Below are positions 5,874 through 17,355 of a DNA stretch of 36,541 nucleotides, piece by piece. The DNA comes from an uncultured Candidatus Saccharibacteria bacterium. GTDB lineage: Bacteria > Patescibacteriota > Minisyncoccia > UBA6257 > UBA9933. How positions within the stretch are numbered: the first letter of the stretch is position 1; each line of letters opens with the position of its first letter. Location: positions 1 through 36,541 of the forward strand of contig CAYIEH010000002.1 of NCBI GenBank assembly GCA_964362385.1, in the 5' to 3' direction. Below the pieces are notes generated by a model. That model saw only the letters and a list, made by a program, of their open reading frames with translations, made no database searches and was not told the DNA's origin. A program made the position numbers and the translations under genes.

Positions 5874-7118
5874 ATGCGCATAAAAACAAATTTTAATATA
5901 GCCGTTGAGGGTTTAAAAATCCATAGATCACGTTCCTTTTTGACGATTTTAGGAATCGTTATCGGCATCACTGCGATTATGATGGTAATGTCTTTGGGAG
6001 GGGGAGCGCAAAATTTGATTTTAAGTCAAATTCAGGGACAGGTCGGTTCTAAAGTTATTGAGATCAGACCGGGTAGACAACCTAAAGGACCTACAGATTT
6101 TTTGTCTATTATGTTTTCTGATTCATTAAAACAGAAGGATGTAGAAGCGTTGAAGAAAAAAAATAATGTCCCTAATTTAAACGGCGTTATGCCTTTAGTT
6201 TTTGGCAGCGAGAGTGCGGTTTACGGAAGCGAAACATATCAGGCAACGCTTTATGGAATGTCAGATCTTGCCGTAAAAATGTATAATATAAAACCTTCGA
6301 GTGGAAGATTCTTTACTGAAGACGAAGTAAAAGGTTATTCTGATGTTGTAGTTATTGGATCTAAAATAAAAGAAGAGCTTTTTGCCAATGAAGAAGCGCT
6401 TAATCAAAAAATAAAAATCAAAGGGAAAAATTTTAGAATTATCGGGCTTTTGGGGAAAAAAGGGCAAGGAACTTTATTGAGTTTTGACGATACAATTATT
6501 ATCCCCTATACAACCGCTCAACAATATATTTTAGGTATAAAATATTTTCAGCATATAATAGTTGAAGCGGATACTGAGGCTAATGTTAATAAAGTTGTTG
6601 AAGATATAAAAATTACTATTAGAAATTCTCATAATATCACGGATCCCGAAAAAGATGATTTTAGCGTGTCGAGTCAGGCTGATGCCATAAAAATGATTGG
6701 TTCTGTGATGAGTGTTTTAACTTTGTTTTTAGCGGCAGTGGCGGCAATCTCACTTTTGGTTGGTGGCGTGGGCATTATGAACATCATGCTTGTTTCAGTA
6801 ACTGAAAGAACGCGGGAAATCGGCTTGCGTAAAGCTATTGGAGCTACGGATAAAAATATTCTGACTCAATTTCTTTTGGAAGCCATTATGCTTACCGGCA
6901 TCGGAGGGTTAATAGGTATTCTTATGGGAACTTTCCTTTCTTTTGCTACCGCGTTAATTTTAAGCAAAGTGGCCGGATTGCAGTGGGTTTTCACCTTTCC
7001 TATATCAGCGGCCTTTTTGGGAATCGGGGTTTCAGTAATAATCGGTTTGATTTTCGGCATATATCCCGCCCGCCAAGCTTCCATGAAATCGCCGATAGAA
7101 GCTTTAAGATATGAATAG
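5874..7118 (+). CDS. ABC transporter permease, MacB/FtsX family
   Basis: N-terminal TM helix, a large extracytoplasmic MacB_PCD-like domain and a C-terminal FtsX 3-TM bundle (TREIGLRKAIGA motif). Confidence 0.85.
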   Translation: MRIKTNFNIAVEGLKIHRSRSFLTILGIVIGITAIMMVMSLGGGAQNLILSQIQGQVGSKVIEIRPGRQPKGPTDFLSIMFSDSLKQKDVEALKKKNNVPNLNGVMPLVFGSESAVYGSETYQATLYGMSDLAVKMYNIKPSSGRFFTEDEVKGYSDVVVIGSKIKEELFANEEALNQKIKIKGKNFRIIGLLGKKGQGTLLSFDDTIIIPYTTAQQYILGIKYFQHIIVEADTEANVNKVVEDIKITIRNSHNITDPEKDDFSVSSQADAIKMIGSVMSVLTLFLAAVAAISLLVGGVGIMNIMLVSVTERTREIGLRKAIGATDKNILTQFLLEAIMLTGIGGLIGILMGTFLSFATALILSKVAGLQWVFTFPISAAFLGIGVSVIIGLIFGIYPARQASMKSPIEALRYE

Positions 7119-7133
7119 CTTAAATCTGACTTG

Positions 7134-7171
7134 CCCCGCAAAATCTGAGTGAAGCGAAGATTTGTGCGGGG
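7134..7171. repeat. GC-rich hairpin element just after the macB stop, flanked by duplicated gene ends
   Basis: ccccgcaaaatct (7134-7146) pairs with agatttgtgcgggg (7158-7171), giving 13 bp with one bulge and an 11-nt loop. See the finding on the EALRYE-stop duplication. Confidence 0.7.
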
Positions 7172-7212
7172 TTGAAGCGCTTAGATATGAATAATTAAGA
7201 TTTTTGATTATT

Positions 7213-15969: not shown

Positions 15970-17355
15970 TTACTCCGTTATGGCGTTGGCTTCAATTATT
16001 TTTTTGTATTCCAAAGCGCTTGGCCGGATTTTTCGCTCCATTGTTTTATAATTCACTTCCACCAGCCCGAATCTAGGCCAAAAACCTTTATCCCATTCAA
16101 AATTATCCAGCAAAGACCAGTAAAAATATCCTCGCACATCTACGCCCTCACTAATCGCCTTATGCACCCACTTCAAGTGATTTTTTATAAACTTCGCTCG
16201 TTTTTCATCTTTTGCATCAGCTAAACCATTTTCAGTTATATAAATTGGCAAGTTTTTTTCCTTCAATTTTTTTAAATTATGATAAATTCCTTCCGGATAA
16301 ATCTCCCAGCCCATATCCGAAATCCATTTATTTGGATTGCGTACGTCAAAAAGTATAAAACGGCCATTAAAAGGGACCACCTTTATTGTATCTAAAAAAT
16401 AATAATTTAGGCCGATAAAATCCTCAAAGCCATCGGTCCATTTTAAATTTCGCCAGTCTCTAAAATATTGCAGAAGTTTAACAGCCACTTTATCCAAGAG
16501 TGATTTTTTATTAAAAGGTAAATGATAATGAATATTGTTTGCGTTTCCAACCATAACTCCAGGCAATTTTTTATGGAGAAGAAGATAGGTTTTTTTATAA
16601 GCAGTAATAAAATTTTTAAGAACTTTATCAGCTTTAAACAAATTTTTCTTTTCTGGAGGAAATTGACCCATAACGTAAGCAAGTCCTGTGTAAATTGTCG
16701 GTTCATTAATGGGTATCCAAAATTTAACTTCTTGGCCGAGTGTTTGTATTATTTTCCCCGCATATCGCAAAAAATATTCAACTGTTTTTTTATTTTCCCA
16801 GCCGCCGATATCCCGTATCCATAAAGGGTTAGTCCAATGCCAAAGCGTCACAAACGGCTCAATGCCGCGTTTACGCAACGCTTTTATAACCTGCCAATAA
16901 TGTTCAATTTCTTTTTCATTAAATTTTCCTTGTTCCGGCTCTATGCGCGACCATTCAATGGAAAAACGATGAGCGTTGTGACCCAATGATTTGGCAATAT
17001 CAAAATCTTCTTCATAACGATTGTAATGGTCGCATGCCCGGCCGGAAATGTAATTTTCTTTTTGAAGCGGATTTGGTCCGCCAGCTTGCGGATTCAAAAT
17101 ATAATCCGGCCAGTTCTTACGATTTGCCATTTGCGATTTGCTATTTGCCGTTTTATGCTCCCACTCACTCCAATCATTATAGTTGTTTCCCTCAACTTGA
17201 TGAGATGAAGTTGCCGCCCCGAAAAAGAATTTTTCGGGGCGAGCCTCGCCCGTTTTTGATGGGCGGGCCGCTCCCCAATAGAACCCCGAAGGATCCCGCC
17301 TTGGCGGGACCAACGGGGCAGGTCCTTTTGGAAATTCAAATTTATTTTCTGTCAT
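15970..17355 (-). CDS. GH1 family beta-glucosidase with two in-frame N-terminal insertions
   Basis: Motifs GAATSSHQVEG, NEP (PINEPTIYT), ITENG and WSLLDNFEW. Start moved to ATG 17355 (MTENKFEFPKG), just after the stop of the upstream AEC gene at 17357. Confidence 0.9.
   Translation of the reverse strand: MTENKFEFPKGPAPLVPPRRDPSGFYWGAARPSKTGEARPEKFFFGAATSSHQVEGNNYNDWSEWEHKTANSKSQMANRKNWPDYILNPQAGGPNPLQKENYISGRACDHYNRYEEDFDIAKSLGHNAHRFSIEWSRIEPEQGKFNEKEIEHYWQVIKALRKRGIEPFVTLWHWTNPLWIRDIGGWENKKTVEYFLRYAGKIIQTLGQEVKFWIPINEPTIYTGLAYVMGQFPPEKKNLFKADKVLKNFITAYKKTYLLLHKKLPGVMVGNANNIHYHLPFNKKSLLDKVAVKLLQYFRDWRNLKWTDGFEDFIGLNYYFLDTIKVVPFNGRFILFDVRNPNKWISDMGWEIYPEGIYHNLKKLKEKNLPIYITENGLADAKDEKRAKFIKNHLKWVHKAISEGVDVRGYFYWSLLDNFEWDKGFWPRFGLVEVNYKTMERKIRPSALEYKKIIEANAITE
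17121..17148. repeat. Heptanucleotide tandem array (NATTTGC x4) inside GH1
   Basis: Units are gatttgc, catttgc, gatttgc, tatttgc. It encodes ANSKSQMANRK. Confidence 0.8.

Follow-up and report, generated by a model that had tools for sequence, protein, structure and literature searches.

Palindromic in-frame blocks in the N-terminus of a GH1 beta-glucosidase from a reduced Patescibacteria genome, and a class-wide group of very short double-hairpin elements

How does a conserved enzyme come to carry two blocks of GC-rich palindromic DNA within the motif that opens its catalytic domain? This question is raised by a GH1 beta-glucosidase gene of an uncultured Candidatus Saccharibacteria bacterium (assembly GCA_964362385.1), whose genome comprises 597 kb in 48 contigs at 39% GC. 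The gene lies in a stretch of 36,541 nucleotides, here called the window, that corresponds to positions 1 to 36,541 of contig CAYIEH010000002.1. Its product begins MTENKFEFPKG-PAPLVPPRRDPSG-FYWGAA-RPSKTGEARPEKFFFGAA-TSSHQVEG, and an earlier note, made from the sequence alone, had described this N-terminus as interrupted by two in-frame palindromic insertions, one of which repeats its target. We believe the probable explanation to be that two small non-autonomous palindromic elements inserted within the first 30 codons of the gene, and that the end of the second one supplies a substitute for the interrupted strand. The features discussed below are collected in Table 1.

Table 1. Position of the GH1 gene, of the parts of its two inserts and of a candidate transposase gene (window coordinates, except for the last line).
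Feature	Position	Strand	Remarks
GH1 beta-glucosidase gene, 461 aa	15970..17355	minus	Intact open reading frame carrying both inserts
Conserved ATG start of GH1	17353..17355	minus	Orthologues begin M-x(1-4)-F-x-FPKG likewise
Alternative in-frame TTG	17311-17313	minus	Inside insert 1, upstream of insert 2
Insert 1, nested-hairpin element, 39 nt	17284..17322	minus (coding)	Encodes PAPLVPPRRDPSG, residues 12-24
Inner 7-bp hairpin of insert 1, TCCCGCC-TT-GGCGGGA	17294..17309		Shared with intergenic CCCCGTAGT..ACTACGGGG (REP-like) repeats
Repeat copy 1, native GFYWGAA (ggg ttc tat tgg gga gcg gcc)	17266..17286	minus	Ancestral strand 1, now in the disordered leader (predicted)
Insert 2, by family consensus	17213..17269		GCCGCCC-hairpin L-GGGCGAGCCTCGCCC-hairpin R-GGGCGGGC
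Hairpin R of insert 2	17247..17265		CGCCC-GTTTTTGAT-GGGCG, 5-bp clamp, 9-nt loop
Central palindrome GGGCGAG-C-CTCGCCC	17237..17251		Family signature
Hairpin L of insert 2	17215..17241		Perfect 12-bp stem CGCCCCGAAAAA / TTTTTCGGGGCG, loop GAA
Repeat copy 2, KFFFGAA (aaa ttc ttt ttc ggg gcg gca)	17212..17232	minus	3' arm of hairpin L plus terminal GGGGCGGC
Y1/HUH transposase-like ORF, 220 aa	C33:1804-2466 (L015:1249-1911)	minus

The GH1 gene and its two interruptions

In a profile search the protein matched PF00232 with 300.1 bits (curated cut-off, 22.6); its closest solved structure was 1VFF (E 2e-87), and 154 GH1 chains of the PDB matched it at E < 1e-40. The catalytic NEP (N217, E218) and TENG (E375) motifs, which appear in the translation as WIPINEP and IYITENG, are invariant columns in an alignment of 69 sequences. 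The ATG lies one base past the TAA of an upstream gene for a 302-aa permease. A gene caller had placed the start at the TTG inside insert 1 (database entry P0001), and the statement in the earlier note that no in-frame start precedes GAATSSHQ has to be corrected for this TTG, though it lies upstream of insert 2.

Eight orthologues of the same family, from other genera and 52-62% identical, read (M..)FxFPKGFYWGAATSxHQVEG with no gap, their DNA at the insertion site being TTT TAT TGG GGN GCG GCG ACT, and none of them carries an equivalent extension. Similarly, the motif was uninterrupted in all of the 119 closest homologues (56-68% identical) found in a collection of 5.8 billion proteins, where the only match at 99% identity was the window's own gene, called from the internal TTG. 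This bears out the earlier proposal of two in-frame insertions: by comparison with these homologues, both blocks are lineage-specific insertions into a canonical FPxGFxWGAATSxHQVEG N-terminus. Since an independent NCBI assembly (GCA_041642995.1) carries both of them and differs from the window by 35 SNPs and no indel over 4344 nt (99.19% identity), the inserts are real and fixed in two strains. The GH1 gene itself shows 12 synonymous versus 3 non-synonymous changes between the two strains, and the sole SNP within the inserts (17254, in the loop of hairpin R) is synonymous. These counts indicate that the gene is under purifying selection and, with its inserts included, it looks functional.

It is true that an insertion into a conserved motif of a catalytic domain usually inactivates the enzyme, and the gene might accordingly be regarded as a decaying pseudogene or as an assembly error. 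However, the frame of 461 codons is intact, the catalytic residues are in place, synonymous differences prevail as just described, and the identical arrangement is present in the independent assembly, so that we consider both explanations very improbable.

Some distant GH1 homologues from other lineages (P0019, P0074, P0081 and P0034) display odd peptides before the motif, namely KIFPQKADSPLAKKFPEC (a possible FP duplication), VPARRGLASGGKNK and VKGESASGEKNK, which resemble independent insertions of GC hairpins at this same end of the gene. The GH1 gene of the window also bears a tandem heptamer array, NATTTGC x4, at 17121-17148; it encodes ANSKSQMANRK in a variable loop and may be another type of small in-frame repeat.

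Dispersed palindromic elements within and between genes

The insert region has 58-65% GC versus 39% for the genome. Folded as single-stranded DNA, insert 2 reached -23 kcal/mol (z -5.6) and insert 1 reached -13.4 kcal/mol (z -3.4). Genome-wide, GC-rich perfect hairpins numbered 163 versus 9-16 in local shuffles, which is a more than 10-fold excess, and an Rfam search retrieved no family (best E-value, 1.8). The palindromes listed in the earlier note were found at their positions: gggcgag-c-ctcgccc forms the centre of insert 2, and tcccgcc-tt-ggcggga is nested in ccccg (17284-17288) and cgggg (17314-17318). The third one, ccccgaaaaa/gaa/tttttcgggg, was correctly placed at 17217-17239, but its perfect stem is of 12 bp (17215-17226 paired with 17230-17241) rather than 10.

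Both inserts are almost stop-free and a multiple of three in length, and it is for this reason that we take them to be simply translated. Alternatively, the inserts could be removed or skipped in expression, for instance with the ribosome hopping from the Ala codon GCC after FYWGA to the Ala codon GCA 54 nt downstream, and the mature N-terminus would then be canonical. Removal of both blocks does restore the exact canonical motif, and insert 2 starts with stable hairpins and is bracketed by similar codons (GGA GCG GCC and GGG GCG GCA). Moreover, bypassed GC-rich mobile inserts are known in yeast mitochondria. The GC clusters, double-hairpin elements and 'byp' elements of fungal mitochondria are short GC-rich hairpin mobile inserts of an AT-rich compact genome, some of them within coding sequence. 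However, byps are organellar, skipped by the ribosome and contain stops, whereas the inserts described here are bacterial and open in frame, with a length that would be unnecessary if they were skipped. Unlike T4 gene 60 and the byps, there are no identical take-off and landing codons (GCC and GCA differ) and no stop after the take-off site, where the next codon is CGC, neither stop nor rare. Bypassing is thus extremely improbable; a read-through product would contain the peptide RPSKTGEARPEK, and a bypass product would not.

Counted in codons, insert 2 corresponds to the extra 54 nt at 17212-17265 (R31-A48, RPSKTGEARPEKFFFGAA). It also fits from end to end the consensus of a family of double-hairpin elements (family 2; 35 copies in more than 30 genomes, 30-66 nt), which after a flanking TTG reads CCGCCC-hairpin-GGGCGAG-S-CTCGCCC-hairpin-GGGCGG and is followed by GAA. 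A scan of public genomes for the central 15-mer GGGCGAGSCTCGCCC was swamped by chance matches in high-GC genomes, and searches restricted to the class were used instead. The 15-mer was present in 32 of 401 class genomes (1-6 copies each) versus 1 of 401 for the reversed control. Its distribution over families was patchy, and only 3 of the 40 nearest relatives carried it. In the genome under study there are two exact copies (C2 and C5), and the core of insert 2 is identical (19/19) to that of the copy in infB at C5:22486, while the 13-nt core GGCGAGNCTCGCC occurs eight times, ychF and the 3' end of pgk included.

The 57 hairpins of family 2 share constant CGCCC/GGGCG clamps and have 57 distinct inner sequences. 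Nonetheless, the inner sequences tend to pair with themselves, with at least three extra base pairs in 46% of the hairpins versus 2% of the shuffles. Because the stems of the family range from 5 to 13 bp, the 12-bp stem of the GH1 copy is ordinary. Of the 35 copies, 24 are placed in open frames that span 150 codons or more, many of them clearly within real genes, and AAPxGGEPRPxGRE is a recurrent reading. In infB the element amounts to a 13-aa insertion that is missing from three relatives. The consensus has no tag of the GTAG/CGTC type. On the basis of these sequence comparisons, family 2 is shown to be a class-wide family of ultra-short double-hairpin elements that stand in frame in coding sequences, essential infB, ychF, thrS-like cases and pgk among them. 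Two other roles were considered and rejected: as DNA uptake sequences their copy number is far too low, and palindromic footprints copied from the flank do not explain clamps that are identical in all genomes.

Insert 1 reads CCCCGAAGGA-TCCCGCC-TT-GGCGGGA-CCAACGGGGCAGG on the plus strand (full sequence, CCCCGAAGGATCCCGCCTTGGCGGGACCAACGGGGCAGG) and is open in all six frames. A 35-nt copy with 91% identity (E 2.7e-7) was found in the pilM-pilN gene of contig 27 (C27), where it is read in the opposite orientation, as SEGSRQGGTYGAS, and the same gene holds a second, degenerate copy. A near-identical 39-mer, with one mismatch in the 21-nt search pattern, is present in the yceG gene of a genome of another family (G184). 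In addition, at least seven intergenic CCCCGTAGT..ACTACGGGG repeats of the genome under study, such as that at C10:10874 (L172), have both the inner TCCCGCC..GGCGGGA and the outer CCCCG..CGGGG stems in common with insert 1. These repeats read CCCCGTAGT(A/G)GTCCCGCC... and contain GTAG next to the stem; insert 1 itself reads CCCCGAAGGA. The same element is thus read in different frames and orientations, for instance as PAPLVPPRRDPSG or SEGSRQGGTYGA.

Other genomic copies, which the earlier note had proposed to look for, therefore exist for both inserts (pilM-pilN and yceG; infB, ychF and pgk). They identify both blocks, at the sequence level, as copies of dispersed palindromic elements, in frame in ORFs as unrelated as GH1, infB, ychF, pgk, pilMN and yceG. 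Could the extension instead have been selected as a module with a function at the N-terminus (for example anchoring, targeting or regulation by a peptide), rather than being selfish DNA? In favour of this, the inserts are kept without indels in two strains and the only SNP in them is synonymous. Against this, no homologue carries the extension, the same DNA is found in unrelated genes and in both orientations, and the segment is predicted to be disordered and lacks a hydrophobic stretch. We therefore regard this alternative as improbable.

Two further observations concern these elements. First, pgk carries a family 2 element directly after the C-terminal ...LPGI(A/V)AL both in this genome (C6:23022-23034) and in G288 (L140), which belongs to a different family; the two genomes either share an insertion of old date or reflect a preference of the element for this site at the gene's 3' end. 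Second, a third element family is represented by a 30-nt double hairpin, TCCGCCCAAGGCGGATCCGCCTCTGG(C/T)GGA, at C3:16560-16589 (thrS) and C14:5813-5842 (rsmH), in frame in two unrelated genes and encoding SAQGGSASGG in both.

The repeated target and barrel strand 1

The earlier note had pointed out a direct repeat between the two copies listed in Table 1, with a period of 54 nt. This was confirmed, with 13 of 21 positions identical, or 13 of 18 without the first codon. When the comparison was anchored at the junctions the repeat was 13/17 identical, a value reached by none of about 1360 null pairings of family elements with foreign flanks. Only one other copy of family 2, in G331 (21/21), exceeded GH1 in flank similarity. 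Because FPKG and FYWG (copy 1) belong to the most common forms in the 119 homologues, and FFFG and RP (copy 2) were found in none of them, copy 1 is the native sequence and copy 2 the newcomer.

It was suggested in the earlier note that the pattern is that of an element plus a target duplication of about 21 nt, as at the 3' end of macB. Part of this stands, inasmuch as the GH1 repeat is not random and the end of macB is indeed duplicated over 21 nt. However, a plain duplication does not account for copy 2, which fits the consensus of the element: this consensus assigns to the element both GGGGCGGC, which encodes the second GAA, and the 12-bp hairpin encoding PEKFFFG, and GGGGCGGC(AA) is a conserved terminus. 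Furthermore, flanking repeats were not consistent across the 35 copies of family 2, among which only GH1 and the G331 copy stand out. A nucleotide screen for flanking repeats around 140 hairpin clusters disclosed no enrichment, although the flank windows overlapped in part, and neither did a six-frame peptide screen, in which the GH1 score of 26 was reached by about 17% of the random controls. As the screens showed no enrichment, the general rule of element plus target duplication was dropped, and for GH1 the target-duplication reading is weakened. The DNA of the native target, GGAGCGGC, is similar to the end of the element, GGGGCGGC, and a weaker echo of this is seen in infB (AAGCCGCC versus AAGCCGGC).

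A true segmental duplication of the N-terminal motif (about 18-30 nt, ...CCA AAA GGA TTC TAT TGG GGA GCG GC) on arrival of the element has nevertheless to be weighed. It could have arisen by a long staggered-cut target duplication, or by illegitimate or homology-facilitated recombination with diverged DNA, in which case copy 2 would be a diverged or imported GH1 sequence. If the copies are extended to the FP codons they share 18 of 27 nt, and MAFFT places RPEKFFFGAA on FPxGFxWGAA. A PEKF-type sequence is also natural in GH1, with FPEK in 2 of the 119 homologues and PEMFLFG in 1VFF. Moreover, related elements have perfect or near-perfect flanking repeats of 14-16 nt (C6:22052, C19:5101 and C8:914), there is the 21-nt repeat in G331, and the gene ends of prfA (27 nt) and macB (21 nt) are doubled around GC hairpins with only synonymous differences. 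However, the region of copy 2 fits the element consensus fully, in its clamps, its TTG flank and a hairpin length within the range of the family, and it is very improbable that native coding sequence should form a perfect 12-bp palindrome. It would also be the constrained copy 2 that is aberrant (FFFG and RP in 0/119) and the supposedly free copy 1 that is canonical, and flanking repeats are not general in family 2. Taken together, we judge a true duplication unlikely. A variant in which a long target duplication was followed by quasi-palindrome correction was rejected, as in the register required only 3 of 9 positions of the native sequence pair and about four changes per arm would be needed.

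The duplicated ends are worth describing in their own right. At prfA (C4:1186-1340) the upstream ORF ends ...MNKIILEIRAGAG, the GGCGAGCCTCGCC hairpin follows, and the downstream ORF starts MENINKVILEIRAGAGGDEA; the seven differences of the 27-nt repeat are all synonymous, CGC versus AGG included, which suggests that both copies were under selection at the protein level or that one came from a diverged homologue. The 3' end of macB (7095-7194) shows EALRYE* twice around a GC hairpin with a 13-bp stem; 17 of 21 nt are identical, and the four differences are synonymous or stop-to-stop. In a phosphomannomutase-like ORF (C6:22052-22110), perfect 15-nt repeats (GGAAATTGGAAATTG) surround a 29-nt CCGCC...GGCGG element and, as the period is of 44 nt, the two copies are read in different frames. 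The same 14-nt repeat is found on both sides of a 93-nt GC composite at C19:5101-5221, and a 16-nt one (15/16) on both sides of a 101-nt composite at C8:914-1046. The repeats on C6, C19 and C8 may be true long target duplications or reflect a heptamer-repeat target.

Which of the two copies serves as the first barrel strand? The contiguous GH1 signature F-x-[FYW]-G-x-A-T-S-x-[YH]-Q-x-E-G occurs only once in the protein, as F43-F-F-G-A-A-T-S-S-H-Q-V-E-G56, and the element supplies the codons of its first six residues. An AlphaFold2 model built with 69 sequences (mean pLDDT 89.4, pTM 0.88) predicted a complete (beta/alpha)8 barrel with residues 44-49, the FFGAAT of copy 2, as strand 1. The pLDDT was below 50 at residues 1-33 and 35-40, and low confidence was also found at the C-terminal tail; the leader segment is predicted to be disordered and has no hydrophobic stretch. 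To the query in the earlier note of whether the 31 extra residues suit the barrel, the model thus answers with a complete predicted fold preceded by a disordered leader (residues 1-42). From what is established on TIM barrels, a strand 1 formed by copy 1 would be separated by 18 extra residues from the glycone-binding Gln, at the active-site face, whereas with copy 2 as strand 1 all the extra residues hang from the opposite face of the barrel. 1VFF, the BGPh of Pyrococcus horikoshii, likewise has a full (beta/alpha)8 domain with the NEP and TENG glutamates, and its N-terminal xPExFxFGxATSSHQxEG aligns with residues 40-56; unlike 1VFF, the protein described here begins with a leader of some 42 residues, composed of the native strand that was displaced and of two element peptides, which is present in no homologue. 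We infer from the model that the element-encoded copy 2 forms strand 1.

A proposal for the origin of the arrangement

We propose that two separate elements entered the first 30 codons of GH1 in this Patescibacteria genome of about 0.6 Mb. Insert 1 would be related to the intergenic REP-like repeats of the genome. Insert 2 would be a complete copy of family 2, with its clamps, central GGGCGAGSCTCGCCC and hypervariable self-complementary inner stems, and would have landed exactly at the GAA/TS junction of FxWGAATSxHQVEG, beside a sequence (GGAGCGGC) resembling its own end (GGGGCGGC). Read as R-P-E-K-F-F-F-G-A-A, the element would mimic the native F-P-K-G-F-Y-W-G-A-A, the first nine of these residues up to R-P-E-K-F-F-F-G-A being encoded by hairpin L on the coding strand. 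The mimicry is attributed largely to codon complementarity, since R-P and G-A-A follow from the clamps, and a left arm rich in A (GAA AAA) entails a Phe-rich right arm (TTT TTC). Element-encoded FFFGAA together with TSSHQVEG would then provide barrel strand 1, and what was originally the N-terminus would make up, with insert 1 and the remainder of insert 2, a flexible leader of some 42 residues on the face of the barrel opposite the active site. The repeat of the target would thus be in part a terminal repeat of the element and in part mimicry, and it would have been retained because only a self-healing insertion leaves the enzyme working. Insertion itself may have been due to a lone Y1/HUH (IS200/RAYT-like) transposase acting on single-stranded hairpins, or to microhomology-guided copying. 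The mechanism of insertion, the read-through translation and the choice of copy for strand 1 are what we infer from these data.

The genome has one ORF of the Y1_Tnp type (PF01797, about 30 bits versus a cut-off of 23), with an HVH motif. All four of the genomes bearing GGGCGAGSCTCGCCC among 41 related ones have Y1_Tnp genes (1, 5, 3 and 2 copies), versus a background of 13 in 41. A 24-nt inverted repeat (88% complementary) was noted at the ORF, one arm being just upstream of the start and the other in the 5' coding region, and in the relatives the number of Y1 genes tracks the presence of GGGCGAGSCTCGCCC.

Several observations weigh against the proposal. The Y1 ORF is below the NCBIfam cut-off for RAYT (29.9 versus 80 bits), and its co-occurrence with GGGCGAGSCTCGCCC (hypergeometric p ~0.007, or 0.02 without the focal genome) was calculated on genomes that are kin and hence not independent. 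Neither an empty-site allele nor an excision footprint nor an identical recent copy came to light, and mobility is deduced from the distribution. In this genome the two exact copies of the 15-mer have no more than clamps and core in common, and the family 2 copies of other genomes all differ in their inner stems; this pattern could be that of an old, selected motif rather than of recent transposition. GC hairpin elements at prfA, macB, C6, C8 and C19 are flanked by genuine duplications of 14-27 nt. Finally, that strand 1 falls on copy 2 in the model is in part a consequence of the alignment, in which the motif of the homologues is placed on residues 39-48.

With regard to known systems, the closest analogues in behaviour are the Rickettsia palindromic elements (RPEs; Ogata et al. 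2000, 2002). According to PMC10969869, these are dispersed palindromes, in frame in unrelated and often essential genes of a reduced genome; they measure about 100-150 bp, encode a conserved peptide that is translated as a surface peptide tolerated by the host fold, and are described there for Rickettsia only. Like RPEs, the elements reported here are palindromic and in frame in unrelated ORFs. Unlike them, they are of 30-66 nt, keep only clamps and centre, are read in several frames and both orientations, and belong to Patescibacteria; no sequence relationship was found between the two groups.

The closest mechanistic candidates, by analogy, are REP/RAYT systems and elements derived from IS200/IS605. 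Repetitive extragenic palindromes (REPs) and REPINs, which are GTAG-tagged and associated with RAYT (Y1 HUH) proteins, are GC-rich imperfect palindromes of 20-40 nt, single or paired (PMC3733652, PMC3337134). The single Y1_Tnp gene, the co-occurrence of elements and Y1_Tnp genes in related genomes and the GTAG beside the stem of the intergenic relatives of insert 1 (CCCCGTAGT...) recall them, but family 2 lacks such a tag. However, REPs are extragenic by definition and of high copy number, whereas the elements described here are few in each genome and often lie within genes; the Y1 ORF is under the RAYT cut-off as stated. The protein-less elements derived from IS200/IS605 (PATEs) resemble those described here in their hairpin ends and in having no regular target duplication, but the latter are much shorter, form almost a single palindrome that has TT[G/C]CCGCCC as terminal inverted repeats, and show no defined target tetranucleotide. 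As compared with classical MITEs (miniature transposable elements with inverted repeats), which have terminal inverted repeats and a fixed-length target duplication, the TT[G/C]CCGCCC ends are similar, but the flanking repeats vary, since most copies lack one, GH1 has one of 13/17, a single other copy has one of 21/21, and related composites are surrounded by repeats of 14-16 nt. A literature search combining Patescibacteria or Parcubacteria with MITE, REP, RAYT or palindromic in-frame elements retrieved nothing relevant, which is no proof that a description does not exist.

More tentatively, we suggest as a possibility that family 2, undescribed in that search, is mobilised by the Y1/HUH transposases of the lineage, and that an element end reading R-P-[polar]-[loop]-[hydrophobic]-G-A-A can rebuild the strand that it interrupts, so that selfish DNA would replace part of a conserved enzyme. 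The GH1 case may be an experiment of nature, with barrel strand 1 replaced by residues that an element encodes. Inner stems that are hypervariable and yet always palindromic raise the question of how they are copied. For uncultured lineages, the consensus CCGCCC...GGGCGAGSCTCGCCC...GGGCGG could mark recent gene flow and insertion history, and elements of this kind explain odd GC-rich inserts and mis-called starts in Patescibacteria proteins. In broader terms, these results mean that highly reduced genomes of the candidate phyla radiation (0.6 Mb) tolerate selfish palindromic DNA in the core of conserved enzymes as extra peptide loops, with elements three times smaller than those of Rickettsia.

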